From Pseudomonadota bacterium (GTDB lineage: Bacteria; Myxococcota_A; Bradymonadia; UBA4248), in NCBI GenBank assembly GCA_017441205.1, contig JAFRYG010000047.1, positions 1-62,968 on the forward strand: a stretch of 62,968 bases of DNA, given 5' to 3'. The translations under genes were made by a program, and so were the position numbers. Below the pieces are notes generated by a model. The model did no database searches, was not told where the DNA came from, and was given only the letters and a program-made list of their open reading frames with translations. Shown here piece after piece: positions 8,854-55,183 of this stretch. Every line of letters begins with the position of its first letter. The first letter of the stretch is position 1.

Positions 8854-8977
8854 CGCCCTGCTGTCGCCTTGCGGCGATACGCCGGGCGCATCGCTGCTAT
8901 GGCAAAAGCGTTCATCCAAACGCTTTTGCCATACGCTGCTTCAGCCGGGCTATCTGCGATACGCCCGGCTTTTTTTT
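8854..8977 (-). repeat. bulged-G CGTA/TAG hairpin element (3 hairpins); may double as the + strand terminator of the amylase
   Basis: Minus strand: A-run agccggg CGTAT c-gca-g ATAG cccggct; gcag CGTAT ggcaaaagcg..cgcttttgcc ATAG cagc; cgcccgg CGTAT cgcc-gcaa-ggcg ACAG cagggcg. Confidence 0.85.
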
Positions 8978-9085
8978 GGCCTTTCCCCACACACAACACC
9001 TCAAATTTGGCGCATTCCCCAAAGCAGGGTAAAATCTTTGCGGCATCAGCCCGCCGTTCCGTTCCCCGCGCTTCATGGAGTGAAC

Positions 9086-9985
9086 ATGCGCAGAACACTG
9101 ATTTTATTAAGTATTATTATCTTCACATGCATGGCGTTTTCCACCCATGCCCTGGCCAAAACAGAAGAAGGCGACCTGCTTACATCTCGCGAGATTCTCT
9201 CCTCGACTCGAGGATATGGGCTCGCCAATGCCATGACTGCAGCATCGAGCGGCACAACCGCCATCTGGCACAATCCCGCAGGTATTACCGCTGCCCAGAT
9301 GTATTCATTTGACGCATCCTATTTCTATCAGCACGATGTCAGCGGTCACGGTTTCGAAACCAACGTCGTCGATATGAAGAGCAATCAGTACGTCGGTGCA
9401 GGCCTCGGATTTCTCTATCAATATGCAACTCCGAACAAGGATGACACTCAGCACACCATCCACCTGAGATTCGGTGCCGGCGTCCCTCTGGCCAACAACC
9501 TCATCAGCCTGGGCATTTCGGGACTATATTCGCACATAAAATACAACGGTAAACAAAGGCTTTCGCAGTTCAGCATGGACGCCGGACTGGTCATTCGTCC
9601 GCTGGACTGGCTCTCTCTGGGGCTTTCCGCACAAAACCTCATCGTCGGCGACTACAAAAACTACATGCCGCGCATGATTTCAGCTGGTATTGCCGTAGGC
9701 AGCATCGAACTCGGACTCAATGCAATGTTCGACGTATCCTTCAACCTGAGTGCCGACAAAATCCCCAAATCCGGTTCATACGGAATCGGTGTTGAATACG
9801 TGCTCAAGGAATTCGTTCCACTGCGGCTCGGTTACCGGTATGAAGGAGATGAACACCACGTCCTGAGTGCAGGAATCGGCTACCGGCACGACGGCGGCAT
9901 TTTTGGACTCGATTTGGCCTATCAACACCATTTCGAAGATTACTCAAATGAGTTATTATCGGCTGCGCTGGAGTTCTATTTTTAG
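9086..9985 (+). CDS. outer-membrane beta-barrel (PorV/FadL-like)
   Basis: ATG 9086 with GGAG RBS; signal peptide; GYGLANAMTA...AIWHNPAG motif; alternating beta-strands; C-terminal LEFYF. Confidence 0.75.
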   Translation: MRRTLILLSIIIFTCMAFSTHALAKTEEGDLLTSREILSSTRGYGLANAMTAASSGTTAIWHNPAGITAAQMYSFDASYFYQHDVSGHGFETNVVDMKSNQYVGAGLGFLYQYATPNKDDTQHTIHLRFGAGVPLANNLISLGISGLYSHIKYNGKQRLSQFSMDAGLVIRPLDWLSLGLSAQNLIVGDYKNYMPRMISAGIAVGSIELGLNAMFDVSFNLSADKIPKSGSYGIGVEYVLKEFVPLRLGYRYEGDEHHVLSAGIGYRHDGGIFGLDLAYQHHFEDYSNELLSAALEFYF

Positions 9986-10070
9986 GAACTTCATGTTCGT
10001 GTGATGCAGTTCACCGTTTTGCATGGGACAATCGGGCGGATAACCCGATCTTTGCCAGAAGGACGCGATT

Positions 10071-11333
10071 ATGGCTAAAATCTCAGACAAAAACAGAATT
10101 ACCAACGAAGAGATTGAAGCAATTGTGGATGAGTTCCTGCGAAAGCTCGAAATTCTCCGCGTCCGCTACGAACAGTACTTTATTGGTGTAGAAAAAGTCG
10201 CCCCCTCGGTCATGCGCATGGATGTCGTCAGAATCATGCGCGAACTGGAGCAGATTAAGGTCAAGAATACTGCCCTGAAATTCAAGATCCGCCAGGGGAT
10301 TCAGAAATTTACAAGCTACTCCACATACTGGAACCGCACACTTCGCGAAATTGAGGATGGCACCTATAAACGCCACATCGATCGCGCCAAACGCAATCAG
10401 GAAACAAACAGGTCTGCTGCAGGACAGAACGCCAAAACTGAGGCCCCCGTCAAAGAAAACCGCGAAGCCTCCAAAGCCGTCGCCGACGAAGCAGAAGCCT
10501 TTCTGGCTGGTCTTGGACTGGCTCCGTCCCCAGCACCCAGACAGACACAAACTGCGCAGGATACTGCAGAGCCACAGCAGCGCAGGCGCGCGCCGACCAT
10601 CACGATGTCCCAGCCCGAAGATGCTCAAAAAGCAATGCTTCGAAAGCGCCGCCCCACGATCGTAACATCCCAGACGGGCGAAATCGCGCAACCCTCCCCA
10701 ACGCAGACACAGCCCATCGCACAACCTGCCCCAACGCAGACGCAGCCCATCGCACAACCATTCCCAACGCAGACGCAGCCCATCGCCCAGCCTGCACAAC
10801 AACCTGCGGCTGCAGCCGCAGCTCAGGCAGACTCACAGAAAAAACTTCTCCGGGCACGCAAACCAAGCATCGTTTCGTCGCAGATCAGTCCGGCTGTGCA
10901 GCCGCCAGCTGCAGCCCCGGCGCAGCCGGCCTTTGCGCAGCCTCAGTATCCGACGCAGCAGCCAGCTCCGCAGTATTCACAAAGACCAGCTGCCGCGCAG
11001 ACAGCCCAGATGCCGGCTGCAGCACAGTTCCCGCCAAGACCTGCGCCTGCTCCGATGCAGCAAAGGCCTGCACCAGCTCCGATGCCGCAAAGGCCTGCGC
11101 CCGCGCAGACAGCCCAGATGCCGGCTGCAGCACAGTTCCCGCCAAGGCCGCCACAGGTTCCGCAAAACCCGGTCATTCCCCAGGTTCCGCCAAGACCCGG
11201 CTTCGCGCAGATTCCGCAAAGAGCTGTACCATCCCAGGTTCCGCAGCAGCCAGCCATGACAAGACCGCCGGCTTCCAATTATGGCAATTCATCGCAGCTG
11301 CCCAATTATCCACAACCACCCTACCAAAAATAA
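10071..11333 (+). CDS. conserved myxobacterial-type helical protein with long Pro/Gln/Ala tail
   Basis: N-terminal LRVRYEQYFIGVEK.AP...NTALKFK...YW.R..REIE.GTY.R resembles (from memory) the N-terminus of MXAN_5187-C-domain proteins; low-complexity C-terminal half. Confidence 0.65.
   Translation: MAKISDKNRITNEEIEAIVDEFLRKLEILRVRYEQYFIGVEKVAPSVMRMDVVRIMRELEQIKVKNTALKFKIRQGIQKFTSYSTYWNRTLREIEDGTYKRHIDRAKRNQETNRSAAGQNAKTEAPVKENREASKAVADEAEAFLAGLGLAPSPAPRQTQTAQDTAEPQQRRRAPTITMSQPEDAQKAMLRKRRPTIVTSQTGEIAQPSPTQTQPIAQPAPTQTQPIAQPFPTQTQPIAQPAQQPAAAAAAQADSQKKLLRARKPSIVSSQISPAVQPPAAAPAQPAFAQPQYPTQQPAPQYSQRPAAAQTAQMPAAAQFPPRPAPAPMQQRPAPAPMPQRPAPAQTAQMPAAAQFPPRPPQVPQNPVIPQVPPRPGFAQIPQRAVPSQVPQQPAMTRPPASNYGNSSQLPNYPQPPYQK
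10683..11150 (+). repeat. coding tandem repeats (IAQP.PTQTQP x3, 33 bp; AQTAQMPAAAQFPPRP x2)
   Basis: Read directly in DNA and protein. Confidence 0.8.
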
Positions 11334-11364
11334 CGCCACGTCGGGACGTGACTGATTATATTCT

Positions 11365-11392
11365 GTACAGACGTGCCGCGACACGTCTGTAC
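11365..11392. repeat. REP-like palindrome, GTACAGACG family
   Basis: gtacagacgtg-ccgcga-cacgtctgtac; relatives at 18373, 18468, 18653 and 62917. Confidence 0.8.
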
Positions 11393-11579
11393 CAACCGGC
11401 AATACTCCCCCAGGAATTACGCGGCGATTTTACTCAGTTCGAAAGGGAAGCATTCACTTCGTCTCCCGCGCCTGCCGGCGCTGCGGCTCGTATCTGATCT
11501 TATTTTGTACAAACGCTCCATCAGAACGTCTGACAACACAAAAAATCGAACACACCGGCAAGATTCCCGACAATGCCGC

Positions 11580-11858
11580 ATGGCCACCTTCTTCTATTAC
11601 GATGAAGATGCCGATAATCATCAGGGCAAGGCGATCTGTACCTCCTATACGCAAAAAGTCGTCAAAGTCGGAGAATGCTCTGAAGTTGGCTGTTCCATTG
11701 CCAAAGAAGATCTCGATAAGCTCGCAGGAGAAAAGCTTTTCATGGTCACCAATCTTGATGCCAGTGGCCTGCCAAGTACGATCGAATGCAATACTGGCAA
11801 CAATACAGACACAATTACCGTTGATAAGTGTGAAACCAAGATCGAGGTCATAAACTAG
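11580..11858 (+). pseudogene. orphan/remnant C-terminal 91 aa of a paralog of the downstream FG-GAP lipoprotein
   Basis: About 80% aa identical by manual alignment to the last 92 aa of 12095..15562; similarity starts abruptly at ggccacc 11582; frame intact; in-frame ATG at 11580. Confidence 0.85.
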
Positions 11859-11950
11859 CCATAAAAAAGGCCGACCGTATGATGCATCATAGGGCGGCCA
11901 GGCGAGTGTATTTTGCCCCGGCCAATAGCAGGGGCAAAATAACGAGCATA
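11582..11950 (+). repeat. direct repeat copy A (~370 bp; copy B at 15283-15657)
   Basis: Gene 3' end plus downstream hairpin element are duplicated. Confidence 0.9.
11863..11947 (+). repeat. bulged-G CGTA/TAG hairpin element (2 hairpins)
   Basis: aaaaaa ggccgac CGTAT gatgcatc ATAG ggcggcc ag gcgag TGTAT tttgcccc..ggggcaaa ATAA cgagc. Confidence 0.85.
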
Positions 11951-12094
11951 CCTAAAAAAAATACTTCCGCCCCTACAACGCGATACGTCTCTGCTGCCAA
12001 AAAAACCATGAATTAACTCCATAACAATGCTATGCTTGCTGAGTTGTGATTCAATTTGCTTTATTTAAAACTGCAACATGCAATGGAGGAAGAC

Positions 12095-15000
12095 ATGCAA
12101 AACCCAAAAAGCCTGTTTTTCGTGTTTATCAGCGCCCTGGCAATGTACGGCTGCAACGATGAATCCAGCACGTCGACGAATACTCCGGCTCCGGCGCCGA
12201 CCCCGGAATGCCAGTCCGGGGCGGATTGCGATTCGGGCGTCTGCAATGAAGACGGAACCTGCGCCCCCAAAAAGGAAGAAAAGAAACCTGAATGTGACGA
12301 TGACAATCCATGCAAGAAACCTCAGAAATGTTTCGATGGAAAATGCAAAACGCCCGAGGGTTACTGCGAATCTGACGATGACTGCAAGGATGACAAAATC
12401 TGTGTGGAAGAGAGCTGCATCGATATTACCTGGCTAAATGAAGGAGACGAATGCAAACCTCTGGGAAAAGAGGCTCAATGCCAGGCACCGCTGATCTGCC
12501 AGGAAGGAACATGCCAGCCTCCAAAAAAGATCATCGACAAGGACAATCCCTGCACGAATGACGAAGATTGCGCAGATCAGGATGGAAAACCGTACTGCCT
12601 CAAAACCGGACTCTGCGGAAATATAGGGGAGCTCGGCGAGGTTTGCAGCGATGAGGTGCAATGCCCGGACGATATGTCCTGCCAAACGGTTTGCGTACAC
12701 GTCAAACACGAAAATGAACCCTGCAACGAGGAAACCTTTGATGTTTGCGATGAGGGATTGAGCTGCAAGGAAGGTGCCTGCCACATTTATAATGACAAAA
12801 TTCAGTCCGGAGAAGAATGCAATGAGTCATGGCTGCTCTGTGACGAGGGCTTGACCTGCCACGACGGTATCTGCGTTACGATTGTTGACGAAGATACCAA
12901 GTGCGACGAAGCAAAGCATATTATCTGCAAGGATGAACAGGCTTGTATCGGAGGTGTCTGCAAATCCGTGACCGGCACATGCGAATCCACACAAGACTGC
13001 AAACAGAAGGATTCGTTCTGCTGCAAGGATGATTCCTGCGGCATGAAGGGTTACTGCATTCCGTACAATGACACGGTTACACACGACGAAACCTGCGAGT
13101 TCGTTACAAAGGAAGGTATCTTCGAAGCCCAGATTCAGTGCCGCTGGCAGCCGCCAGCCAATAATGACTACAGCACATCCACAAAAGTCGAAATGCCTCC
13201 TCTGGTCGGACCATTCGGAGAGTTCAAAACATCCAAGGGTAAGGATATAAAGAACGTCATTGCCGTTTATTCATATGATAAACGATATACCAAAACAGAG
13301 GAGACCGATCAAAAGGCTCATAAATCGGCGATTCGCTTCATCAACCCGGAAACCTGTGACACGCTCCAGACTATTCCCTACGAAATGTCGTGTGCATGGC
13401 AGAACTATCCCTCTGCAGCGGATCTGAACAACGACGGTCTTTTTGAACTCATCGTCATCGACAGCAAACACCGTCCGGTCGCATTCAAGTGGGATGCTTC
13501 GAAAAAGCAATACGCCAAATGGTGGACCGGTGAAGTCACCACCGGCGATGTTCCCATGATTTTCGACATCGACAACGACAAAAATCCCGAAATCATTCTG
13601 GGGGATGCCGTCATCAACGGAAAAACGGGCAAAACCATCTTTGCAGGTACCTTAGATAAAGAAGGAAAACCCACTGACTACACATATCGTACGCTTGCCG
13701 TCGGTTATCTGGATACAGCCAAAGACGGGCTCGCCTCGATGGCCATCAGCAGCAAAGTACAAAAATGGGATAAGACCAATAAAAACTGGAAAGTGATCGC
13801 CAGACTTCCCAAGAGCCGTACGCACTTGGCATACGCAGATTTCGGCACACCAGGCAAAGAAGACAAAGACTTTAATTTCAGCAAACTCGACGGCAAACCT
13901 GAAATCGTCTCTGCCGGCGGCGGTACGATGAGCATCTATGCCCTGACGCCCAGCGCCAAAGGAGATGGCACCTACGACGTTCAGACTGTCATGGATGTCA
14001 CATTTACAGACCCCATTGGTTCGACGAGCGATAAACCCCAGGGAGGCCCGATCACCATCGGCGACTTCGACAGCGATGGATTCCCCGAAATCGGCATCGC
14101 TTCATCCGGATTTTTCGGCGTCTATGATCCGCGATGCCCGGGCTATAAAAAAGGCGAAAAAGGCGAATGCGCCGACAAAAACGTCCTCTGGGAACGATGG
14201 TCGCAGGATGCATCCTCAGGTCAAACCGGTTCCTCGCTGTTTGATTTCGACGGCGACGGCAGAGCCGAAGCCGTTTATGCCGACGAATGTTTTACACGTA
14301 TCTATGATGGCAAAACAGGAAAAGTTCTCTTCAGTGCAAAGCGTTCATCCAGTACATCCATCGAAGCACCGACGATTGCCGATATCGATGGCGACGGCAG
14401 CGCCGAAATCGTCATGGGGTCCGATAACAATATCTCGTGCTATCACGATACGTACGATCCAAACGATACTACGGGTGAAAAGACGAAGTATAGTCCGACC
14501 AATTCAGAGCATGCCAAATTGACGGACTTTGCCGACCCAATCCACGAAGGCATTCCATGCCTGGCCGACGAAGATTGCCCGCTGAGCAAGAACTGCGACA
14601 CAAACCTCAAACTCTGCCTGTGCCAAACCGATGCAGACTGCAACACTCAAAATACTCCGACGCTCAAACCTGAAGGAAAAAAAGCAGGTGAAGAGTGTAA
14701 GAAAGATGCAGATTGCAGGAGCAACAACTGCGTTCTCGACACCAAGACCAACAAGAAAACTTGCAGCAATATCCTCCAGCAATACGTCTGTGCGCCCCCG
14801 ATCCATAGCCAGGTCGGCATGATGGTCAATTCCGACGGCAAAGGCAGAAAAATGGTCAAACCCAGAGGAACGCGCCCCAATGGCTGGAAAGAAGGTGACT
14901 ATCAGGTCTGCCGTGCAACCCGAAAAACGAGGCAGATTGGTAATGCCGACATGATGATCTTCAAGGATCGTCTGGATCGATGGGTCAGCTCCCGCAATAT

Positions 15001-15562
15001 CTGGAATCAGCACTCCTACAATATCATCAATATCGAAGATAACGGCAAAGTGCCTGACAATGCCACATGGCTCAAAAACTGGAATCTCAAGAATGATAAG
15101 AAAAATCCCGTTTACAATAATTATCGCCTGAACAAGCAGGGCACATACGGTGCAGGCAAAGCCCCAGATATTACAGGACGATTCCTGCCCGGCGATATAT
15201 GCGGCCAAACCGAAGATGGAGAATACATCATCAAAGGCAAGCTCTGTAACCGCGGAACCAAGCCCGTATCGCAGAACCTTCCGGCCACCTTCTTCTATTA
15301 CGATGAAAATAATGAGAAAAATCATCAGGGTAAGGCGATCTGTACCTCCTATACGCAGAAGGTCGTCGGCGTCGGTGAATGCTCTGAAGTTGGCTGCACC
15401 ATTACCAAAGAAGAACTCGATGCTCTCGCTGGACAAAAGCTTCTCATGGTTGCCAATCTCAACGAAAAAGGTCTGGCAAGCACGATCGAGTGCAATACGG
15501 AAAACAATACAGACACAATTACCGTTGATAAATGTGTAACCAAGATTGAGGTCGTGAATTAA
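12095..15562 (+). CDS. large Cys-rich FG-GAP/VCBS repeat surface lipoprotein (adhesin-like)
   Basis: ATG 12095 after GGAGG; lipobox AMYGC; N-terminal Cys-rich repeats; DLNNDG, DIDNDK, GDFDSDG, FDFDGDGRAEAVYADE, ADIDGDGSAEIV; WNQHSY motif; C-terminal CNRGT Ig-like module. Confidence 0.88.
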   Translation: MQNPKSLFFVFISALAMYGCNDESSTSTNTPAPAPTPECQSGADCDSGVCNEDGTCAPKKEEKKPECDDDNPCKKPQKCFDGKCKTPEGYCESDDDCKDDKICVEESCIDITWLNEGDECKPLGKEAQCQAPLICQEGTCQPPKKIIDKDNPCTNDEDCADQDGKPYCLKTGLCGNIGELGEVCSDEVQCPDDMSCQTVCVHVKHENEPCNEETFDVCDEGLSCKEGACHIYNDKIQSGEECNESWLLCDEGLTCHDGICVTIVDEDTKCDEAKHIICKDEQACIGGVCKSVTGTCESTQDCKQKDSFCCKDDSCGMKGYCIPYNDTVTHDETCEFVTKEGIFEAQIQCRWQPPANNDYSTSTKVEMPPLVGPFGEFKTSKGKDIKNVIAVYSYDKRYTKTEETDQKAHKSAIRFINPETCDTLQTIPYEMSCAWQNYPSAADLNNDGLFELIVIDSKHRPVAFKWDASKKQYAKWWTGEVTTGDVPMIFDIDNDKNPEIILGDAVINGKTGKTIFAGTLDKEGKPTDYTYRTLAVGYLDTAKDGLASMAISSKVQKWDKTNKNWKVIARLPKSRTHLAYADFGTPGKEDKDFNFSKLDGKPEIVSAGGGTMSIYALTPSAKGDGTYDVQTVMDVTFTDPIGSTSDKPQGGPITIGDFDSDGFPEIGIASSGFFGVYDPRCPGYKKGEKGECADKNVLWERWSQDASSGQTGSSLFDFDGDGRAEAVYADECFTRIYDGKTGKVLFSAKRSSSTSIEAPTIADIDGDGSAEIVMGSDNNISCYHDTYDPNDTTGEKTKYSPTNSEHAKLTDFADPIHEGIPCLADEDCPLSKNCDTNLKLCLCQTDADCNTQNTPTLKPEGKKAGEECKKDADCRSNNCVLDTKTNKKTCSNILQQYVCAPPIHSQVGMMVNSDGKGRKMVKPRGTRPNGWKEGDYQVCRATRKTRQIGNADMMIFKDRLDRWVSSRNIWNQHSYNIINIEDNGKVPDNATWLKNWNLKNDKKNPVYNNYRLNKQGTYGAGKAPDITGRFLPGDICGQTEDGEYIIKGKLCNRGTKPVSQNLPATFFYYDENNEKNHQGKAICTSYTQKVVGVGECSEVGCTITKEELDALAGQKLLMVANLNEKGLASTIECNTENNTDTITVDKCVTKIEVVN

Positions 15563-15657
15563 CCCCACAAAAAAAGGCCGCCCGTATGATGCATCATAGG
15601 GCGGCCAGGCGAGTGTATTTTGCCCCGGCCGGCAGCAGGGGCAAAATAACGAGCATA
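15283..15657 (+). repeat. direct repeat copy B
   Basis: See 11582-11950. Confidence 0.9.
15569..15654 (+). repeat. bulged-G CGTA/TAG hairpin element (2 hairpins)
   Basis: aaaaaaa ggccgcc CGTAT gatgcatc ATAG ggcggcc ag gcgag TGTAT tttgcccc..ggggcaaa ATAA cgagc. Confidence 0.85.
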
Positions 15658-15747
15658 TTCCCCAATGCTCTGTTCCATGAGTATGGCTATTATTATTTTT
15701 GTTGCAATGATTGCGATGGCTATATTCAGCACTCATCACAATAAGTA

Positions 15748-16036
15748 CGCCGCCATGGACGGCGGCGAGAGGCGAGGGAGGCATGTCCAGGGATGGACAT
15801 TCGACCCGCAACAACGATAACCAAAAGAAGCGTGCGGGGGGCCGAGATGAGTACCGTTCGGTGAACGGTGCGAATCGCAGAGCCCAGTGAACAACGGCCA
15901 ATCATGAGCCGATTGCCGACAGGCAAAGGAGGCGATATGAGTGGCCCATTGTGAACTGTGTAGGGGGTGTTCACAATCGAACACCCCCTGCCGCGTAAGC
16001 GTACAAAAAAAACAAGCATCCGCGCTGCAAAGCGCG
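15748..16036 (+). ncRNA. multi-hairpin structured intergenic element (candidate sRNA or MITE-like element)
   Basis: cgccgcc-atggac-ggcggcg; atgtcc-agggat-ggacat; gtaccgttc-ggt-gaacggtgc; agggggtgttc-acaatc-gaacaccccct; cgcgct-gcaa-agcgcg. Confidence 0.45.
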
Positions 16037-16088
16037 AACAACTCTGTATACCAATAGGTGTGGCTATGTTAGGGGGAGAACGCCAAAA

Positions 16089-17390: not shown

Positions 17391-17433
17391 TGCGTGTCTC
17401 CGCGCCGCATTGCGGCAAAAATATAAAATGAAC

Positions 17434-18294: not shown

Positions 18295-18372
18295 TTCCCT
18301 CTCCAGAGACAACCTATGACAAAGACGGTTTAACTCAAAATATAAATGTTGGCACATTTTGGGGCTACGGGT

Positions 18373-18494
18373 GCACAGACGTGTCACAAATCGTCTCTGC
18401 TAACCCTAACCCACAGACGTGTCGCTGCCAACTCTAACCCACAGACGTGTCGCTGCCAACTCTAACCGTACAGACGTTCCACGGAACGTCTCTA
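18373..18494. repeat. cluster of GTACAGACG REP-like units including a 28-bp tandem duplication
   Basis: ctaacccacagacgtgtcgctgccaact x2 (18406-18461), then gtacagacgttcc-ac-ggaacgtctcta. Confidence 0.8.
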
Positions 18495-18520
18495 ACAATT
18501 AACTGCTTTTTTTGGGGGAT

Positions 18521-18600
18521 GTGGCCTTTTGCCTGCGGCAATACGGCCACCTGGCGCGGTTCTATTGGGGTGCCCCCAATACGCCCCGCGCTTTTATTTT
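18521..18600 (-). repeat. bulged-G CGTA/TAG hairpin element (2 hairpins)
   Basis: Minus strand: aaaataaaa gcgcgggg CGTAT tgggg-gca-cccca ATAG aaccgcgc cag gtggc CGTAT tgcc-gca-ggca AAAG gccac. Confidence 0.8.
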
Positions 18601-18652
18601 CGATGGGCTGCACACGTAACTATCTCACTATTCACTAAACATTATGCATTCT

Positions 18653-18680
18653 GTACAGACGTGCGGCCCGCACGTCTCTA
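18653..18680. repeat. REP-like palindrome, GTACAGACG family
   Basis: gtacagacgtgcgg-c-ccgcacgtctcta. Confidence 0.8.
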
Positions 18681-18690
18681 ACAACAATTC

Positions 18691-18816
18691 ATTACGCATT
18701 ATGAATTACGCATTATGCATTGCGCATTGCGAATTATGCATTATGAATTACGCATTATGCATTGCGAATTATGAATTATGCATTATGAATTACGCATTAT
18801 GCATTATGCATTACGA
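18691..18816. repeat. heptamer tandem repeat ATTRYGM x18
   Basis: attacgc/attatga/attatgc/attgcga units; the last unit overlaps the rnhA stop codon. Confidence 0.92.
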
Positions 18817-19518
18817 ATTCCGGCGCGTCCCCGACTGCTTCGTATCGCGCGCCAATGCGACGAGCCTGTCAACATGCTCATTATGGCGAATTCCGACATG
18901 AGCCTTGACTTTAAGAAGCTGCAAATTCCTGCATTTGCGCATTTCTTCCCTAACCTGCGCAATCAGCTCCTGGTTTTTGTTTGCCTTCATCGTTCCGGTC
19001 AAAACGCCGATCGCATACTTTGAATCCGAATACAGCAATATCGGCAAATCCTTATTCTTCACATTTTCAAGCGCTCGCAAAATCGCCGTCAGTTCTGCGA
19101 TATTATTGGTCGATTTGCCCAGATATTCCCATATTTCAAGCGAATGAGTGCCGTACATCATCAATACGCCGAAACCGGCCGGACCGGGATTCGGACTTGC
19201 CCCGCCATCCGTATAAATGACGATCGTATTGGGAGGGATCGTATCATCGGCAGCAGCAGGCTCAACCGAGGTCACTGGCGTCTGGTGTTTTTTGGGCGCG
19301 CGCGCAGCATGTGGCGCAGAAGGCGGTCTCAGTTCAACAGGTTCAACGCCGGGTATCATCGTCAGATTGCCGCGCCCCGTCTGATATTCGGCGGCATCTT
19401 CCTGAGCCTGATAGCGATAGCGCGCCATGCCATTGGCATCTGCAATCAAATTCTGATTCTGATCTACATAGACGTAAACCTTGATTTTTTGCTTAAAAAG
19501 CATCCTGAGCCACGGCAT
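18811..19518 (-). CDS. rnhA: ribonuclease HI with N-terminal extra domain
   Basis: IYTDGGASPNPGPAG, TNNIAELTA, SDSKY, KVKAHVG..NEHVDRL. Confidence 0.9.
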   Translation of the reverse strand: MPWLRMLFKQKIKVYVYVDQNQNLIADANGMARYRYQAQEDAAEYQTGRGNLTMIPGVEPVELRPPSAPHAARAPKKHQTPVTSVEPAAADDTIPPNTIVIYTDGGASPNPGPAGFGVLMMYGTHSLEIWEYLGKSTNNIAELTAILRALENVKNKDLPILLYSDSKYAIGVLTGTMKANKNQELIAQVREEMRKCRNLQLLKVKAHVGIRHNEHVDRLVALARDTKQSGTRRNS

Positions 19519-19583: not shown

Positions 19584-21706
<2,123 letters not shown>

Positions 21707-27111: not shown

Positions 27112-27191
27112 AAAAAGCCGACGTATCGCTCTGCGATAGTCGGCTTCAGGCCGGGCGTATCGTGAATGCAATGCATTCACGATAGCCGGCT
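27112..27191 (+). repeat. bulged-G CGTA/TAG hairpin element (2 hairpins)
   Basis: aaaaagccga CGTAT cgc-tct-gcg ATAG tcggctt cag gccggg CGTAT cgtgaatgca-a-tgcattcacg ATAG ccggc. Confidence 0.88.
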
Positions 27192-27209: not shown

Positions 27210-27740
27210 TCAGTTGGATTTTTCATCCACCATGTTGCGAAGCAATGCATTGAAAGCTTCCATACCTTCATTGCGATTGGCCTTGGCAAAATAGCCGACG
27301 ACAAGGAATGCTGTCGGTTTTTCATCCTTGACCACGAATCCGAATATCGCCGTCGAAATGGACAAACCTGCCGACGAAAACTCATATTCCGCCAGTCTGC
27401 CAGTTCGCGTAGATCCGTTGGCCAGATCAAATTTATGCTCCTTTGCCGGCATTACAACAGTAAAATTACTATTCTTCAACTGTTCATAAAAAGCCTCAAA
27501 CAACTGCTCTCCATAGCTATCCCTGACGAGCGTACGCTTAAAGATTTCAATTCGATTTTCATTGTCTGTATCGACAAAAACGGCAATACGATAATTATTG
27601 ACATCAGATGTTTCGTTTACCCAGTGTTCAGGCGGTTGAATAACTACCGGAGAACTATTGGGGACCTGTGCTGATGCCGTAAAAACCATCCCGGTCAAAG
27701 CAAAAAGAACAAGCGAACCAATTATCAAAAAGCGCTTCAT
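27210..27740 (-). CDS. secreted protein (possibly PsbP/DcrB-like fold)
   Basis: Signal peptide ending ASA; IQPPEHW motif; RBS GAGG. Confidence 0.7.
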   Translation of the reverse strand: MKRFLIIGSLVLFALTGMVFTASAQVPNSSPVVIQPPEHWVNETSDVNNYRIAVFVDTDNENRIEIFKRTLVRDSYGEQLFEAFYEQLKNSNFTVVMPAKEHKFDLANGSTRTGRLAEYEFSSAGLSISTAIFGFVVKDEKPTAFLVVGYFAKANRNEGMEAFNALLRNMVDEKSN

Positions 27741-36514: not shown

Positions 36515-36599
36515 GGACATGCTATGCCGGACGGCGCACGCGTGCCCCATCCGGCATACGCATGCCCCCGGCGCTATGGCTTTGCCATACGCGCCTTTT
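36515..36599 (-). repeat. bulged-G CGTA/TAG hairpin element (2 hairpins)
   Basis: Minus strand: aaaa ggcg CGTAT ggc-aaa-gcc ATAG cgcc gggg catg CGTAT gccgga...tccggc ATAG catg. Confidence 0.85.
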
Positions 36600-42059: not shown

Positions 42060-42135
42060 AAAAAAAACGCCGCGTATTGCGAAGCAATAGCGGCGTTCCG
42101 GCGCAGCGTATCGGCCCACGGGCCGATAGCGCGCC
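42060..42135 (+). repeat. bulged-G CGTA/TAG hairpin element (2 hairpins)
   Basis: A-run aacgccg CGTAT tgc-gaa-gca ATAG cggcgtt cc ggcgcag CGTAT cggccc-ac-gggccg ATAG cgcgcc. Confidence 0.88.
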
Positions 42136-43808: not shown

Positions 43809-47924
<4,116 letters not shown>

Positions 47925-48016
47925 AGCTTTACCTCTTGATTAAGGCAGGGAGTTTACCGGATTTTCCGGCGCTTCCCGAGTCGACTGAATGAGATTCAAC
48001 AATATTTCATAAATCC

Positions 48017-48092
48017 CCTCATCTCCCCCGAATATTCCACTGTCTCAGGACAGCTTCGCACTCGCCGAAGGCGAGGACATGGGGAAATGAGG
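48017..48092 (-). promoter_or_regulatory. branched stem-loop in the rpoB-rpoC spacer
   Basis: cctcatttcccc/ggggagatgagg outer helix (one G-U on the mRNA strand) enclosing ctcgcc-ttc-ggcgag and ctgtc-ctga-gacag. Confidence 0.5.
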
Positions 48093-48109
48093 TCGTGGGT
48101 GAGGAACAA

Positions 48110-51100
48110 TTAACGCGGTGCTTCTTCGAGAAGTTCGATGTCGAGGCAGAGAGACTGGAGCTCTTTGATGAGAACGTTGAACGACTCTGGGAGACCGGCT
48201 TCGAGCGCGAAGTCACCTTTGACGATGGACTCATACATACGCGTACGACCGAGGACGTCGTCGGATTTGACCGTGAGGAATTCCTGCAATGAGTAGGCAG
48301 CACCATAGGCCATCATTGCCCAGACTTCCATTTCGCCGAGACGCTGACCACCGAACTGCGTCTTACCACCGAGCGGCTGCTGCGTAACGAGGCTGTAGGG
48401 ACCAATCGAACGGGCGTGAATCTTTTCATCGACCAGGTGATGGAGTTTAAGCATGTACATGACGCCGACGGTCACGTCGTTGGCGAACGGATCGCCCGTG
48501 CGGCCATCGAACAGCGTCGATTTGGCGCTCAAATCGAGTCCTGCATTTTCGAGCAAATCGTGGATATCGGTTTCCTTGGCGCCATCGAATACCGGCGTCG
48601 CAACGTGAATACCGCGATTGCATTTCTTCGCGAACTCAATGACATCATCTTCGCTCAGGCTGTCGAGGAATTCGACCGTCTCGGGCTGCGGATAGGCTTT
48701 CTTAAGTTCTGCACGAAGCTTCTTGCACTGATCTTCGCGGGCAACCTGAAGCAGTGCATTGATCTTCTGGCCCATGCCGCGGGCGCCCCACCCCAGATGA
48801 ATTTCGAGGATCTGACCGATGTTCATACGGCTCGGTACGCCGAGCGGATTGAGCACGAAGTCGACCGGGGTACCATCTTCGAGGTAAGGCATATCCTCGA
48901 TCGGCAGAACATTACTGACGACGCCCTTGTTTCCGTGGCGGCCGGCCATCTTGTCACCGACCTGGATCTTGCGCTTAATCGCAACGCTGACCTTGACGAT
49001 CTTGATGACGCCGGGAGGAAGCTCATCGCCTTTTTCGAGCTTGGCGATTTTGTCATCGTAGTAAGCGCGTGCTTCTTCGCACTGCTGTTCCACGAGTTCC
49101 ATGATCTTGTCGATCTTTTCGGCAAGCGTGGCATCCTTAACCTGAATATTCGTCCACAGATGACGATCGATACCATCCATGATCTCATCGGTCAGAACGG
49201 TGCCCTTCGCAATCAGGGTATTTTTCTCTTCGTCGATGAGTTTTGCAGTCGTCGTCTGACCGACCAGGAATTCACGAATGCGCTGATAGCCGCCGTCGCG
49301 GATGATCTTGAGCTGAACATCCAGGGCCTTGGTCAGGCGTTCTTCTTCGACGCGATCGATTTCGCGCGAACGCTCATCGCTGTCTTCTTTCTTGCGGCTG
49401 AAGACCTTGGCATCGATGACGGTACCGACGAGCCCGGGCGGAACGCGCTGCGAGCTGTCGCGAACGTCGCCGGCCTTTTCACCGAAAATCGCGCGCAGAA
49501 GCTTTTCTTCCGGCGAAAGCTGCGTCTCGCCTTTCGGCGTGACCTTGCCGACCAGAATGTCGCCCGGCTTGATTTCCGCACCCACGCGAATGATACCGGA
49601 TTCATCCAGATCCTTGAGGGCTTCTTCACCGACGTTCGGAATGTCGCGCGTAATCTCTTCCTTGCCGAGCTTGGTATCGCGGGCAATGCACTCGAATTCC
49701 TCAATATGAATGGACGTGTACACGTCCTTGATGACCATTCTTTCGCTCAGCAGAATGGCGTCTTCGTAGTTGTAGCCGCACCACGGAACGAATGCGACGA
49801 CCACGTTCTTGCCGAGGGCAAGTTCACCGCAATCCGTCGAAGGACCATCGGCAATCACATCGCCGACGTTGACATGATCACCGACATTGACCGCAGGAAT
49901 CTGATTGAAGCAGGTGCCCTGGTTGGAACGGCGGTATTTGTAAAGATTATAGATATCGGGTTTGACGTTCAAACCGTTTTCATCGCGATCCGCACGAACG
50001 ACGATGCGCGACGCATCGACGCGTTCGACCGTACCGGCATGTTTCGCAAGGACGGCCACGCCGCTGTCGCGGGCAACCAGACGTTCCATGCCCGTTCCGA
50101 CCCACGGAGCTTCCGCAACCAAAAGGGGAACTGCCTGACGCTGCATGTTCGCGCCCATGAGGGCACGGTTGGCGTCGTCGTTTTCGAGGAAGGGAACGAG
50201 AGCCGCAGCAACCGAAACCATCTGGTTCGGGCTGACATCGATGTAATCGATATCTTCGGTGCGAACGACCGTCAGTTCGCCGTTCTGATGGCATTCGATC
50301 GTATCGCCGACGAGGCAGTTGTTCTCATCGATCGCAACGTTTGCCGGGCTGATATTGTGATCGTCTTCATCGAGTGCACTCAGGAAATCGACTTCATCGA
50401 GGATCTTGCGGTTCTCGACGCGGCGATACGGTGTCTCGATAAAGCCGTACTCATTGACGCGTGCAAACGTCGAAAGGGATGCGATCAGACCGATGTTCGG
50501 TCCTTCAGGCGTCTCGATCGGGCAGATTCGGCCATAGTGCGTGGGGTGAACGTCGCGGACTTCAAAGCCTGCGCGCTCACGCGTCAAACCGCCGGGGCCC
50601 AGTGCCGAAAGACGACGTTTATGCGTCAGCTCGCTGAGCGGGTTGGTCTGATCCATAAACTGCGACAACTGGCTCGAACCGAAATATTCACGGACGACAG
50701 CAACTACCGGCTTCGCATTGATGAGATCGTGCGGACGAACAACATCCGTCGCCTGATTCATCGTCATGCGTTCCTTGATCGCACGTTCCATGCGGGCAAG
50801 ACCATTGCGGTACTGATTCTCAAGGAGCTCGCCGACGGCGCGGACACGACGATTGCCCAAATGGTCGATATCGTCTGCCATTCCCTTGCCCTGGGCGAGG
50901 TCAATCAGATAACGCACGGTTTCGATGATGTCTTCTTTGGTCAGAACCGTCGTTTCAGTATTCAGTTTGAACTTGTGATTGAGCTTCAGACGGCCGACCT
51001 TCGACAGATCATAGCGTTCCGGATCAAAGAACAAACCATGGAAAAGCGCATCCGCCATTTCCTGAGTGGGAGGATCGCCGGGACGCGTGCGGGCATAAAT

Positions 51101-52222
51101 CTCAAGACGGGCATTTTCCGGGCTCGAGCATTTGTCCACTGCAAGCGTACGGCTCAACTGACGACCGACATTCAGGCCATCGTTGTCAAAATAGAGAACA
51201 TTGATTTCGTTGATGCCGCAGGCACCCAGTCTCTCGAGAATTTCCGGCGTGATCTGCTGGTTGCATTCCAGAATGACTTCGCCGGTCTCTTCATTATAGT
51301 AGTCCTCGGCTGCCACGCGGTCACACAGGGATTCCATGCTCATCGGAACATGCGTAATGCCTGCTGCGATCATCTTGCGGATCGAACCCGCATTGTATTT
51401 GCGCTTTTCGCGAACGATCACTTCGCCCGTCGTCGGATCGACAATATCAAAATCCGCACGCTGGTTCAGGAGATACTTGCGTTCGAGCGGACGATAGATA
51501 CCTGTTGCATCGACAGAAATCGTCTCGATATCGTAGTACATCTTGAGCAATTCTTCGGTGGAATAGCCAAGTGCACGAAGCAGAATCGTCGCATACATCT
51601 TGCGGCGGCGATCGATGCGAACACAGAGCATTTCTTTCGTGTCGAATTCAAAATCGACCCACGAACCACGGTAGGGAATGATTCGCGCCGAAAAACTCAG
51701 TTTTCCGGATGCCGAACTCGTACCGCCGTCATTGTCGAAAAATGCACCGGGACTGCGGTGCAGCTGGCTGACGACGACGCGCTCCGTGCCATTGATGATA
51801 AAGGTCCCTTCCGGCGTCATCAAAGGAATGGCGCCAAAATAAACCTGCTGCTCCTGAATGTCATGGATGCTGCGATTGCCGGCCTCATCCTTGTCAAACA
51901 CCGTCAGCCGAACATCGACCTTAACAGGTGCTTCATACGTCATCCCGCGGGAATGACATTCTTCAACATCATATTTCGACTCTTCAAGCGCATAACTCAC
52001 AAAATCCAGTTCGCTCGTCTCGTTGAAGTCGCGAATCGGGAAAATACTCCTGAACACGCCCTGAAGGCCTGTTTCCGTACGTTTCTCGGGCGGAACATCA
52101 GCCTGAAGGAACGCATCATAAGAGCGCCGCTGAATGTCGATCAAATTTGGCACATCCACAATGCATTTGCTCGTTGCATAGCTGCGGCGTGCCCTGAAGT
52201 TCGACTGAATCACAGATGCCAT
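48110..52222 (-). CDS. rpoB: RNA polymerase beta subunit
   Basis: [53 protein letters not shown]. Confidence 0.99.
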
Positions 52223-52566
52223 TTCATCTCCTCGAGTACAGGTCAGTAAAAATACGAATACTCTTGTATTAACGTGCTTTTGCGCGTGGTGCGCAGAATC
52301 CCGATGCGTTCAAGTCATATATGGTAAAGAATCGATTCGGGGTGAATTGTTTCATGCGCACAGACTCCATAAACGAATGCTGCCTCCATGCAGCTTCGCA
52401 AAACATACCCGCGCATTTTTTACGCAGGCTAAAGCCGAAAGAGGCTACACCTACACATCACACATTGTCAACCACATTTATCGTTTTTTTGATGCAGATT
52501 TTTTTCGTTTTCGCAACAAAAAAAATTAATTTTTTTAAATATTTTTTTAATTTTTTTATTTTTTTG

Positions 52567-52641
52567 CGGCCAGGCTAGTGCCGCCGGCACTACGCCCCGG
52601 CCGCCGTGCTATGGCGATGCCATACGCACGGCACTTTTTTT
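52567..52641 (-). repeat. bulged-G CGTA/TAG hairpin element (2 hairpins)
   Basis: Minus strand: A-run gtgccgtg CGTAT ggc-atc-gcc ATAG cacggc ggccgggg CGTAG tgcc-ggc-ggca CTAG cctggcc. Confidence 0.85.
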
Positions 52642-52811
52642 GGTGGGAATTCTCAGCCCACACTTCTCTGATGAAAAAATTCACTTACAGGCGTTCCGCA
52701 GAACATCTCCCCAATTACTTTCCATAACCGAATACTTCATTCTATAATCCAACCCGTGTTGCCCTCCCCGACGCACGAAGGCATGGAATCCCCATATTCA
52801 CCGGAGTTCTT

Positions 52812-54578
52812 ATGAAATACGCAAATAAATCCCTTCTTATCCTCGCAATGGCAGGAATCATGTGCCTGACCGGATGCAAAAAAATAGCGGAAAGTCTCGA
52901 AGAAAAAGCCCCTCAGCTTTCACAGGCCCTCTCCGGAAAAAGCTGGGACAAATCCGAGGTCAACTCCCTGCTCACCTACGTTCCCGCCGATACGGCAGCA
53001 ATCTTCGCCACGACCAGACAGTTCGACTTCGACAATCCAACCATCAAAATGGTACTGTCAAAAGGATTGAAAAACTTCGACGCCACCCTTGATGAAGCCA
53101 AAAATCACCTCAAACAGCTGCCGCCCGACAGCAAGGATATGCCAAAATTAAAGGAGCTCATCGACACGCTCGAAGAAACCTATCGCCCCATGCTGGCTGA
53201 TTTTTCCAATGAATCCGTCAAGTGGGGATTCGATCCCAAACACATGGATTCCATCATCTATCTAAATGATACGACGCTTGTCGCCAAAGTCACCGTCGCT
53301 GACGGCAATAAACTCAAAGCCAAACTGACGGAATCCCTGAACGCCGTAAATCATCTGTTCGGAGCCCTGGCCAATAATAATGCCCCAAAGGTCGAACTCA
53401 AGGAAATCAAAGCCGGCGGCGAAACCTGGTCGGTTTACTCCACCGCCGCAGCCCTCGAAAAAGCTGCCGGCGAATGCATCGCATGCGAAAATGGAAAAAC
53501 CACGCTCCCGTCCGATATCGCCATTCATTTCGGAAAAGAAATCGTCACCATGGCTTTCGTTGTCCATGACGATACGGCCACGCTCGAAAAACTCCTCAAA
53601 CCGGCCGCAAATCCGCTCAATAAAAAGGATCTCGGAACAATATCGGATACGACGGCCTATATCGGTTACGTCAACAACGTCGCATTGTACAACCAGATTA
53701 CTCGCGGAAATGGCCTGAAATTTATCCAGGCCATGGGTTTGGAAACATCTCCGGAATGTATTGCCGAAATCGGTCAGATGGTTTCTGTCTTCCCCAAATT
53801 CAAGCATGAATCGCAGATCACGCCTTCCAATCACATTGTGTCCAGCAATACACTCATGATGAACGACAAGGAGGAGCTCAAAAAAATCAACGAACTCCAC
53901 ACTCAGGGCATGGATTTGATCAAAGACGGAACACTCGCCGGGCTCGGGCTGAATCTGAACATTCCCAAATTCATCGCCTATCTCCAGGAGATCGGCGATA
54001 AACTAAAGGCAAAATCATACAAATGCGAAGCCATCCGCGAGATTCCTTCGGCGATTGGCATGATGGCAGTATTTATGCTCAATCCCGAAATCAGCAAATA
54101 CACTTCGGCAATCACCGGTATCTCTGCCGCACTGACAAAACTCGATATCACCGGCGCAGAGCCTCAGATCGAAGCCGCCGTCCATCTGACGGGTCCCCAA
54201 ATTGCGGCTGCCATACAGGACGATAGCCTGCCGTTAAAACTCCTCATGGTTTCACCGTATGCCGCCAAAGCCGTTAAGAGCATCAAGAAAGGCGAAGTCT
54301 CTGAGATCGACCTCTCACCCACGCTCAATATGCCGCTCAAACTCAGTACCTATCTCAGCGATACAGACCTCGTTCTGGGAACTTCCAGCTTCGATGTTCA
54401 ATCGATTGCCAATCAATCCAAAGTTCAATCCGGGGATTTCCTGAGAATTGCCGTGGATACGAGCATCCTGGCCCTTGCAGGTCTGAATCTTCCGGTTAAT
54501 TTCACTCAGGAACTCATTGATACACACTTCGGCTCAAACGACGAAGGCTTCTTTTTTACTGCCGTTCTCAAACAATAG
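52812..54578 (+). CDS. lipoprotein of unknown function
   Basis: Lipobox LTGC; LLTYVPADT motif; RBS GGAG. Confidence 0.8.
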   Translation: MKYANKSLLILAMAGIMCLTGCKKIAESLEEKAPQLSQALSGKSWDKSEVNSLLTYVPADTAAIFATTRQFDFDNPTIKMVLSKGLKNFDATLDEAKNHLKQLPPDSKDMPKLKELIDTLEETYRPMLADFSNESVKWGFDPKHMDSIIYLNDTTLVAKVTVADGNKLKAKLTESLNAVNHLFGALANNNAPKVELKEIKAGGETWSVYSTAAALEKAAGECIACENGKTTLPSDIAIHFGKEIVTMAFVVHDDTATLEKLLKPAANPLNKKDLGTISDTTAYIGYVNNVALYNQITRGNGLKFIQAMGLETSPECIAEIGQMVSVFPKFKHESQITPSNHIVSSNTLMMNDKEELKKINELHTQGMDLIKDGTLAGLGLNLNIPKFIAYLQEIGDKLKAKSYKCEAIREIPSAIGMMAVFMLNPEISKYTSAITGISAALTKLDITGAEPQIEAAVHLTGPQIAAAIQDDSLPLKLLMVSPYAAKAVKSIKKGEVSEIDLSPTLNMPLKLSTYLSDTDLVLGTSSFDVQSIANQSKVQSGDFLRIAVDTSILALAGLNLPVNFTQELIDTHFGSNDEGFFFTAVLKQ

Positions 54579-54675
54579 CCTCGCCTCTGCAGCGCTCCAA
54601 CGGGCGCTGCATAAATAGCAGTGTGTGAGCGAAGCGCATCCCACGGTATCAGTGTTCCCCGATGCGCATTACGAA

Positions 54676-55023
54676 TTACGACGCGGGCTTGACATCAAAA
54701 GGAAGTGCAGCCCTGACTGCATCATCGCTGCCGCAGGTACCAGTTGATATTTCCAGATAAACCCGCTGACACTGAGAAACCGCGTCGATATAGAGCGCAC
54801 GTTCGGACTCTTCCGGCACCTGTTTCCCTATGGAGTCAATAATACCATTATATTTTTTGGTCAAAGGCGCCAGTGCCTCGGCCATCGCCGGGCAATCATC
54901 CGTCATTTCAGATACTTTTGTCAGATCCCGGCTAATCTGCTCCAATTGCTCTCGTTCATTCTGACATCCGGAAATACAGACAAACGTGCCAACAGTTAAT
55001 AAAACCAGAATTATCCGATTCAT
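54676..55023 (-). CDS. small helical Cys-containing lipoprotein
   Basis: Lipobox ISGC; RBS GAGGT. Confidence 0.75.
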   Translation of the reverse strand: MNRIILVLLTVGTFVCISGCQNEREQLEQISRDLTKVSEMTDDCPAMAEALAPLTKKYNGIIDSIGKQVPEESERALYIDAVSQCQRVYLEISTGTCGSDDAVRAALPFDVKPAS

Positions 55024-55093
55024 TGTTTACCTCGTGACATATACAGATTCATTACGGATATTTATGGATGAAATTGAGCATGAGGTCAAGACC

Positions 55094-55183
55094 AAAAGCA
55101 AGCCGCGCGTATCCCATAGCGCGGCCAGGCGAGCCGTAGTGGCATCTCCGTGACATTCGGTCACGGGGATGTCACAAGGCGAG
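55094..55183 (+). repeat. bulged-G CGTA/TAG hairpin element (2 hairpins)
   Basis: aaaagcaa gccgcg CGTAT ccc ATAG cgcggc cag gcgagc CGTA gtggcatctccgtgac..gtcacggggatgtcac AAG gcgag. Confidence 0.82.

Follow-up and report, generated by a model that had tools for sequence, protein, structure and literature searches.

Small palindromic repeats such as the repetitive extragenic palindromes (REPs) have been known for forty years, yet their main function is still debated; in E. coli, the bacterial interspersed mosaic elements (BIMEs) bind gyrase or IHF. The attC sites of integrons, which are longer than the hairpins described here, have conserved R and L boxes at the base of the stem and lie at cassette ends, in one orientation and next to intI, and the subterminal hairpins of IS200/IS605 elements are imperfect, carry an extrahelical base and are read as single-stranded DNA. 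According to the available excerpts of the literature, IS200/IS605 elements need the Y1 transposase TnpA and favour the lagging-strand template (PMC6006769); REPs are sorted by an unpaired GTAG or CGTC tail at one end, are conserved in sequence within a family and form head-to-tail dimers to a negligible extent (Di Nocera et al., PMC3733652); and the TRIT motif of Mycobacterium is a lineage-restricted hairpin at gene termini, present in 147 copies, strongly conserved in sequence, mostly bidirectional and overlapping stop codons around position -8, for which its authors considered an extra binding factor (PMC3152330). Here we describe a family of intergenic hairpins, henceforth referred to as the CGTAT family, that came to notice in a stretch of 62,968 nt (contig C178, henceforth the ‘window’) of a metagenome-assembled genome (MAG) of gut Myxococcota (G000; 4.36 Mb, 221 contigs, 49.3% GC, 93.9% complete). 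The family is defined by its fold and by a fixed asymmetric nine-base core with one unpaired G, all other sequence being free.

A sequence-only reading of the window had claimed that nine intergenic loci hold 19 tandem hairpins with a fixed core, CGTA on the 5' arm and TAG on the 3' arm, that leaves the G unpaired. To assess this we folded the nine arrays with DNA parameters, on both strands and against 200 shuffles per array. All nine fold as claimed, with z scores of -4.4 to -8.0, and 0/200 shuffles fold as well; each array consists of two or three adjacent hairpins, 19 in total, in which the unpaired G lies just 5' of a T-A, A-T, T-A step. The variants proposed in that reading (TGTA/TAA, CGTAG/CTAG, AAG and CAG) are also present, as TGTAT/ATAA, CGTAG/CTAG, AAAG, ACAG and CAAG. 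The pattern CGTAT-N5-30-ATAG occurs 20 times in the window when 4.5 matches are expected (0/100 shuffles reach 20), and 13 of the 20 matches lie inside the nine loci and are palindromic within, the remainder resembling chance matches; a pattern scan of the whole window found no further array locus. A search of Rfam with the 62,968 bases, on both strands and at the gathering score, gave 0 matches, and the available part of PMC3733652 describes only GTAG and CGTC end tags, in line with the earlier reading, which recognised no described repeat family with this core.

We then searched the whole of G000 with a strict descriptor (an outer stem of at least 4 pairs, CGTA, an inner stem of at least 3 pairs, a loop of at most 12 nt, and TAG), the genome-wide check that the sequence-only reading had proposed. 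The descriptor finds 464 hairpins, whereas the other 255 bulged 4-mers give 9 as the median and never more than 71; the reversed genome yields 23, and three dinucleotide shuffles yield 0, 1 and 1. Scans that presuppose less of the core gave the same picture: anchoring on TAT/ATA only yields 730 hairpins with a 1-nt bulge as against 98 unbulged ones, the bulge being a G in 694 and the closing pair C-G in 671, and a fully unbiased scan for bulged hairpins across 841 kb of G000 returns CGTAT/ATAG in 246/346. With a relaxed finder, 757 hairpins are recovered at a score where the reversed genome yields 138, and the family in G000 thus comprises roughly 650-750 copies; about a quarter (495/2095) of the perfect intergenic hairpins with a stem of at least 7 bp are members. 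The core is longer than first proposed, since T follows CGTA in 461/464 strict copies and A precedes TAG in 459/464; the next outer pair is G-C in ~79%, so that the core reads (G)CGTAT...ATAG(C) with an unpaired G. Outside it almost everything varies: 433/464 full sequences are distinct, outer stems span 4-11 bp and inner stems 3-17 bp, the inner part between the core halves measures 7-32 nt, and loops are mostly 3 nt long.

The two strands of the hairpin are not equivalent. The A-T pairs are oriented so that the 5' arm carries the T and the 3' arm the A, and the unpaired positions of the CGTAT strand avoid T; the spacers are A-rich with 5% T, and are not specifically CAG-like as had been suggested. 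Triloops on this strand are GCA in 141 cases and TGC in 13, and internal mismatches are purine-purine in 213 and pyrimidine-pyrimidine in 38; tandem GA/AG pairs number 39. Like cGNAg triloops, tandem G.A pairs are a typical feature of stable DNA minihairpins. When energies were computed with DNA parameters for 666 hairpins, the CGTAT strand was stabler in 501 and less stable in 144, the gap being small (about 0.5-0.6 kcal/mol), and RNA parameters likewise favoured it, 365 to 176. These results support the earlier proposal that it is the CGTAT strand that folds, although the difference in energy is slight.

The hairpins are assembled into polar elements, each with an A-rich head, 1-3 tandem GC-rich hairpins and then a C/A-rich tail of ~60 nt that is T-poor and often reads CCCAAAA. 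AAAA lies at most 12 nt upstream in 133/353 arrays and TTTT at most 12 nt downstream in 0/353, so that the A-tract described at the window loci is not present in every array; read on the complementary strand, the same ~38% of arrays (133/353) present GC-rich hairpins followed directly by a T-tract. Among multi-hairpin arrays, 195/206 have all their hairpins on one strand, and a second hairpin with the outer stem GCGAG/CGAGC recurs in ~100 copies. The asymmetries of head and tail are unchanged by the direction of the neighbouring genes and are therefore a property of the element, not of its neighbours.

To establish how widely the family is distributed we compared 17 genomes of the taxonomic family, of which 15, from three genera, are rich in the hairpins and two (G011 and G013) are poor in them. 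The pattern GCGTAT-N6-20-ATAGC occurs 480-930 times per genome in 11/11 genomes of the window's genus (reversed control, 28-195), 400-730 times in the three genomes from a second genus and 276 times in one genome, the only one compared, from a third. It is at control level in two sister genera of the taxonomic family (8 vs 8 in G011 and 40 vs 39 in G013) and in 44 genomes from other families of the class. Genome samples agree, CGTAT/ATAG making up 6/15 (G012), 23/32 (G016) and 32/43 (G014) of the bulged hairpins, with no dominant bulged core in the samples of the two sister genera, and the strict descriptor matched once in 70 more distant rpoB loci (1.31 Mb). Among the genomes searched, the hairpins are thus restricted to three related genera of gut/rumen Myxococcota MAGs. 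The rpoB gene of the window is 85-90% identical to records of uncultured Myxococcales, Myxococcota or Proteobacteria MAGs, some labelled water-buffalo rectum, and 80% identical to that of a Bradymonadales bacterium record. Near-identical DNA is present in gut metagenome contigs (bovine, goat, sheep and other); 15 runs hold at least half of the sampled words, and the 20 run rows with any part of the window DNA come from 12 studies.

Within this lineage the arrays persist while their sequences turn over. Upstream of rpoB, clear arrays with unrelated stems occupy a similar place in the window and in 4/7 relatives, a fifth relative (L003) having only a degenerate hairpin there; since the coding DNA of these species is ~25-30% divergent, the comparison shows turnover but not its speed. 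In a 98%-identical strain 4/4 compared arrays are kept, with changes in loops, in one spacer, at one stem position where pairing is restored and in one rebuilt apex, and no gain or loss of a whole hairpin was seen between 98%-identical strains in these four arrays. We therefore rejected the idea that the arrays are hypervariable between strains. The rebuilt apex belongs to the second hairpin of array 3, where an unrelated, longer sequence replaces 15620-15645 in L116, a strain 98.4% identical elsewhere; 14 differences fall within 110 nt around it, compared with 160 in 9851 nt overall. Duplicated arrays can be traced to segmental duplications. Adjacent hairpins with identical core and inner unit but unrelated outer stems account for 13/124 pairs when 0.4 are expected, which, like the variable inner part of the composite subfamily described below, hints at a modular behaviour; among 666 hairpins there are 463 distinct inner units, and an exchange of inner units across the genome was discarded, units of at least 14 nt being common to only 1 unrelated pair. 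The arrays as a whole lack recent copying and appear to be host-kept.

Arrays lie close behind genes: a median of 52-68 nt separates them from the upstream stop codon, the spacers being ~270 nt long, and by crude open reading frame (ORF) calls they occupy 101/392 convergent, 169/1508 co-directional and 44/375 divergent spacers. Co-directional arrays at most 60 nt from the stop prefer the orientation of a terminator, 81 to 48, and those 150-400 nt from it show the reverse preference, 6 to 25. Where two arrays share a spacer they stand head to head in 22 cases and tail to tail in 3. The orientation of each array is related to that of its neighbours. In the strict set, consecutive arrays are opposite in 253 cases and the same in 112, and across exactly one gene the ratio is 52 to 12; in an independent relaxed set the figures are 232 and 117, which 0/2000 orientation shuffles match. 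This alternation fades with distance, the ratio of opposite to same falling from 22:3 (under 500 nt) through 36:6 (0.5-2 kb), 77:30 (2-5 kb) and 64:50 (5-10 kb) to 32:28 (over 10 kb), with 135 to 39 within 5 kb overall; it persists inside runs of genes on one strand (30:15) and recurs in loci from other species or assemblies (19:5), and the inverted pairs of arrays enclose 0-3 genes. The window follows the rule, the order of its nine arrays being - + + - + - + - + with a duplicated pair as the sole exception. A rule that the tail faces the nearest gene proved weak, 188 to 144, and leaves the alternation unexplained. GC skew, which with a genome in 221 contigs is only a proxy for the replication strand, shows no bias, the CGTAT strand lying on the G-rich strand in 193 arrays and on the C-rich strand in 180, with a further 84 arrays in regions of weak skew. 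The local alternation of array orientation is a new signal of genome architecture.

Because the asymmetric core is invariant while the stems are free across three genera, a reader molecule is implied, and because the A-tract is one-sided, the arrays lie just past stop codons, doublets stand head to head, arrays near stops prefer one orientation and neighbours alternate, a direction-dependent barrier to transcription fits. Our preferred reading, tentative at a probability of about 0.4, is that the arrays are REP-like, host-kept elements of chromosome punctuation, the core of which would be read by a putative factor and which would form a one-way transcription barrier. A clade-specific factor would dock on the bulged core of the folded strand, be it a DNA hairpin, a cruciform or RNA; a transcript running from tail to head would carry stable hairpins and then a U-tract, as in an intrinsic terminator, while one running from head to tail would not, and local alternation would ensure that sense or antisense transcription in either direction meets a stop every few kb. 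The anatomy, the polarity, the siting near gene ends, the alternation, the confinement to one lineage and the absence of recent copying are observed; from these patterns we infer both the existence of the factor and the function, as termination or insulation. The earlier proposal of sites for a protein encoded elsewhere is strengthened in so far as a core constant across three genera argues for a trans-acting reader, although no HUH or recombinase partner emerged. The same reading also played down termination, whereas the polarity fits a one-way terminator in a large subset.

Several observations weigh against this reading. Termination alone requires neither a fixed core nor a bulge, and the mismatches, GNA triloops and DNA energies favour the CGTAT strand as the folded one, although this strand is not the one that would terminate. 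A clear A4 head is present in only 38% of arrays, ~12% of divergent spacers contain an array, and co-directional spacers are near even, with 123 arrays in terminator orientation and 106 opposed. No candidate factor was found by the searches described below. The gene coordinates come from a crude ORF script rather than a gene finder, which limits every placement count; the genome itself is fragmented, a 94%-complete MAG in 221 contigs; and the sequencing-run data are assembled contigs, showing neither transcript ends nor strand. Readings at the level of DNA are kept alive by the near-even orientation to adjacent genes together with the better-folding CGTAT strand.

One such reading is that the hairpins fold in single-stranded DNA and serve as sites for a recombinase or transposase that recognises structure, in the style of attC and IntI or of REP/IS200 and HUH Y1 enzymes, the extrahelical G setting strand and polarity. 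It would account for a G that is invariant while stems vary, for the tandem G.A pairs, the cGNAg triloops and the greater stability of the CGTAT strand in 501/666 hairpins, for neighbours that combine the same core and inner unit with unrelated outer stems (13/124 vs 0.4), and for a composite subfamily, described below, that is hypervariable between the core halves and conserved in its flanks; distance-dependent alternation would be expected if neighbours in direct orientation were lost by site-specific deletion. We nevertheless consider it unlikely, because the gene complement and the history of the arrays speak against it. The sequence-only reading had looked to a co-occurring HUH/RAYT (REP-associated tyrosine transposase) or tyrosine-recombinase gene, and this expectation failed: PF01797, present in 12/17 genomes of the family comparison, is missing from the hairpin-rich G003, G005, G007, G009 and G012, two of which are 97-99% complete, and present in the hairpin-poor G011 and G013, and a family hairpin lies within 1.5 kb of only 2/10 Y1 loci, so that a RAYT/HUH partner, neither tracking the hairpins nor flanked by them, was rejected. 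The single Y1 transposase of G000 scores as an IS200/IS605 transposase. The integron integrase (TIGR02249) is above cut-off in 0/17 genomes, the search returning Xer-like matches only, which occur in the hairpin-poor genomes too; RVT_1 occurs in 5/17 genomes, and G000 has no match to RVT_1, Resolvase or IS110, leaving reverse transcriptases, integron integrases, serine recombinases and IS110 without a candidate that tracks the family and, in G000, nothing that fits apart from two Xer-like genes with counterparts in the hairpin-poor genomes. The 18 genes bracketed by arrays are all ordinary (PLP enzyme, L/F-transferase, ABC ATPase, Fic and methyltransferase among them) and include no transposase. 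A link to phages was rejected, as viral contigs contain 0 matches to one common hairpin pattern. The likeness to single-stranded DNA elements of the IS200/IS605 type, also drawn earlier, is at odds with the lack of a GC-skew bias (193:180), the copies are nearly all unique with inner units of at least 14 nt in only 1 unrelated pair, the arrays are stable between 98%-identical strains, and no strand-changing (inversion) joint is among the joints listed for 20 kb of the window in the contigs of four runs. A selfish mini-hairpin that inserts itself into the apices of hairpins already present, terminators for example, could explain the same shared inner units; in that case the outer stems would be host hairpins and the CGTAT...ATAG unit the insert. 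Hairpins of other families are nested in the inner part of some copies (C161, C165, C120), first hairpins often resemble A-tract/T-run terminator stems split by a unit, and in a GTAG-tagged composite subfamily the copies are almost the same, with 11 identical. We hold this to be very improbable all the same: inner units are nearly all different (463/666 distinct), outer stems abut the core without leftover loop bases, no transposase candidate was found, no hairpin was gained or lost between 98%-identical strains in four arrays, and spacer-less palindromes, the possible empty sites, are not abundant. The 73 cGTAg triloop hairpins that had been considered as empty sites were assigned to another repeat family, and a TA target duplication was dropped as unsupported.

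The arrays could also be architectural sites like the BIMEs of E. coli, at which a protein of the nucleoid or topoisomerase type would bind the palindrome in an extruded or kinked form; the arrays would then serve as topological borders from one transcription unit to the next. The arrays are intergenic in spacers of all types, divergent ones included, their orientation follows neither gene strand nor GC skew, A-rich flanks adjoin GC-rich palindromes, alternating inverted pairs surround 0-3 genes, and the position upstream of rpoB is kept in relatives (4/7 clear, L003 degenerate) with different sequences. All of this would suit such sites, yet it leaves the one-sided A-tract unexplained, and a symmetric binder of double-stranded DNA is excluded because the spacing of the core halves varies from 7 to 32 nt; we accordingly think the idea quite unlikely. 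We give similarly little credence to the notion that the arrays are plain intrinsic terminators or stabilisers of mRNA 3' ends without a dedicated factor, the core being inherited from an old amplified repeat and kept inside selected stems. Stable GC-rich stems near stop codons, a U-tract on one strand, enrichment in convergent spacers and, as far as the available part of PMC3152330 goes, the TRIT precedent of a lineage's own terminator motif are all as it would have them. Selection for pairing only, however, would purge the bulge, whereas bulged hairpins outnumber unbulged ones 730 to 98 with G in 694; the core is invariant over three genera while all other positions turn over, and nearly half of the arrays are wrongly oriented for the adjacent gene. 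A bolder statement, which we regard as doubtful, is that the arrays are the sites of a structure-reading system, in which a protein of an unrecognised family would recognise an extruded hairpin by binding its bulged-G core, with an effect that depends on direction, as a site-specific recombinase or nuclease or as a polar roadblock. If true, the alternation within 5 kb would be its footprint, left by the deletion of direct-orientation neighbours or by the need to cover both directions, and the chromosome would carry a punctuation code set by shape and nine bases rather than by sequence.

The nine arrays of the window are listed in Table 1. The loci at 11863 and 15569 are paralogous and hence not independent, a duplication having left the same segment at 11582-11950 and 15283-15660: the end of ORF 11373-11858 repeats the final ~290 nt of gene 12056-15562 together with its array, and the copies are 83-93% identical as measured through a related strain. 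The run contigs reveal differences between strains; one, from a sheep-gut run, joins 11672 to 15377, omitting the 3704 nt between the two paralogous arrays, so that the large FG-GAP gene separating the copies is missing from some strains. No ribosomal-protein gene lies directly upstream of rpoB; instead there is a 590-nt divergent spacer (52222-52812) in which long A/T runs (52500-52566) adjoin array 8, and relatives have the same layout with other hairpin sequences. Near array 4, a 28-nt tandem repeat at 18393-18477 has 3 copies, each with half an AGACGT hairpin; it shows a 60-nt gap relative to a 98%-identical strain, and the contigs of two runs lack 28 nt at 18406. In 4/4 runs compared, the summed contig depth over a minisatellite with units of 7/14/42 nt (CATTATG-like) at 18690-18819 is very high, and joints there are numerous. 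Contigs of 151 nt from RNA libraries cover 11779-11929 and 8735-8885, which is not a demonstration of transcription.

Table 1. Positions, strands and folds of the nine CGTAT arrays of the window; hairpins are given with their core halves where these are noted.
Array	Position	Strand	Head and hairpins	Context	z
1	8854..8970	-	A-rich head seen as T8 at 8970-8977 on the + strand; hairpins 8943-8970 (CGTAT/ATAG, GCA loop), 8893-8939 (CGTAT/ATAG, long inner stem) and 8854-8888 (CGTAT/ACAG variant)	17 nt past the stop of the + strand alpha-amylase-family gene 6591-8837	-8.0
2	11864..11947	+	A-tract; hairpins 11869-11899 (one A.G mismatch in the outer stem) and 11902-11947 (TGTAT/ATAA variant; outer stem GCGAG/CGAGC with tandem G.A pairs)	Paralogous copy of array 3	-5.0
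3	15571..15654	+	A-tract; hairpins 15576-15606 and 15609-15654 (TGTAT/ATAA; outer stem GCGAG/CGAGC)	Convergent spacer	-6.2
4	18521..18598	-	Hairpins 18554-18591 (CGTAT/ATAG, internal loop in the outer stem) and 18521-18551 (CGTAT/AAAG variant, GCA loop)	Two - strand genes on either side; CGTAT strand is the coding strand	-4.5
5	27112..27189	+	A-tract; hairpins 27115-27146 and 27152-27189	21 nt past the stop of gene 27210-27740 (- strand) and oriented as its terminator would be	-7.4
6	36515..36598	-	Hairpins 36570-36595 and 36515-36567 (10 bp inner stem and apical extension)	Two - strand genes on either side; CGTAT strand is the coding strand	-6.4
7	42060..42133	+	A8 head; hairpins 42066-42097 (GAA loop within GCGAAGC) and 42102-42133		-4.8
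8	52568..52640	-	Hairpins 52602-52633 (CGTAT/ATAG) and 52568-52601 (CGTAG/CTAG variant)	Divergent spacer upstream of rpoB (48110-52222, - strand)	-4.4
9	55098..55183	+	Hairpins 55102-55125 (CGTAT-CCC-ATAG, without a further inner stem) and 55129-55183 (CGTAG/CAAG variant; GCGAG/GCGAG outer flanks, long inner stem with G.T pairs)		-5.7

Part of the family is embedded in a larger repeat. A composite of ~110 nt, present in 53-59 copies, consists of a C5/G5 hairpin, GTAG or GGAG, a CGTAT hairpin with the outer stem GGCG or GCGG, and a G5/C5 hairpin; its flanking hairpins and outer stem are conserved, and the inner part is hypervariable yet always palindromic. The GTAG-tagged composites number ~34-46 with up to 11 identical copies, GGGGTAGGCGCGTAT occurring 28 times and GGGGTAGCGGCGTAT 6 times, and GGTA precedes only 32/666 hairpins. 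Of the whole family, only this composite subfamily gives the impression of recent amplification. Examples are C5:16727, C34:261 and C119:179; none lies in the window, and the relatives L002 and L005 have the repeat as well. Many copies lie 140-260 nt from contig ends, and the repeat therefore probably breaks the assembly. A second structure-like hairpin family with a variable interior, AGACGT-N4-16-ACGTCT, has 424 members in G000, 188 of them intergenic perfect hairpins, which often adjoin CGTAT hairpins or nest inside them; its sequence includes the CGTC that tags the second of the known REP superfamilies, and it is represented in the window at 11369-11388, 18472-18491, 18657-18677 and 62921-62940 (4 vs 0.05 expected). 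The single Y1 gene of G000 (C123:20950-21832, L001) is flanked by palindromes of the GTAGCCCCCGG type (53 copies in the genome) and by ACAGAACCCCAGAGGGGTTCAC hairpins, and these repeats look like an ordinary GTAG-REP/RAYT-like set, separate from the CGTAT family.

The family separates variables in a way that known repeats do not, its sequence being free while its fold, nine-base core and one unpaired G are fixed and its head and tail are clear. It thereby provides a clean test case for what reads such hairpins, whether as DNA or as RNA, and for what orientation does, and it is relevant to the annotation of terminators, 3' untranslated regions and assembly breaks in the widespread uncultured Myxococcota of the ruminant gut.

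In the portions of the literature available, we found no description of a bulged-core, structure-defined repeat family or of repeats of this clade. The CGTAT family resembles REPs and BIMEs in consisting of small GC-rich intergenic palindromes, arrayed and present in hundreds of copies per genome mostly just downstream of genes, in having versions that differ between species, and in including a subset with GTAG directly before the hairpin. It differs from REPs in that its motif lies inside the stem around a bulged G rather than forming an unpaired end, in that its copies are nearly all unique (433/464) whereas the stems and loops of REPs are conserved in sequence, and in that its hairpins are tandem within arrays (195/206), with inverted pairing only between arrays, over 0.1-5 kb. 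Unlike in REPIN-RAYT systems, RAYT genes neither co-occur with the family nor flank it. With attC sites it has in common conservation by fold, an extrahelical base that marks the strand and a variable central part, but its hairpins are only 26-55 nt long, its core lies in mid-stem, its arrays alternate in orientation (232:117) and the integron integrase is found in 0/17 genomes; IS200/IS605 ends, for their part, differ from it through their dependence on Y1 and their strand preference, as the family has neither Y1 co-occurrence nor a skew bias. In ~38% of arrays the complementary strand, with GC-rich hairpins followed directly by a T-tract, is like an intrinsic terminator, and near-stop arrays prefer that orientation (81:48), but terminators have no common internal motif or obligatory bulge, and close to half of the arrays point away from the gene next to them. 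As far as can be judged from the available portion of PMC3152330, TRIT comes closest as an earlier example of a hairpin that is specific to a lineage, lies at gene ends and possibly needs a factor; the CGTAT family differs from it in being conserved only in its core, polar and ~50-70 nt past stop codons. We class the CGTAT family as palindromic intergenic repeats of a sort without earlier description.

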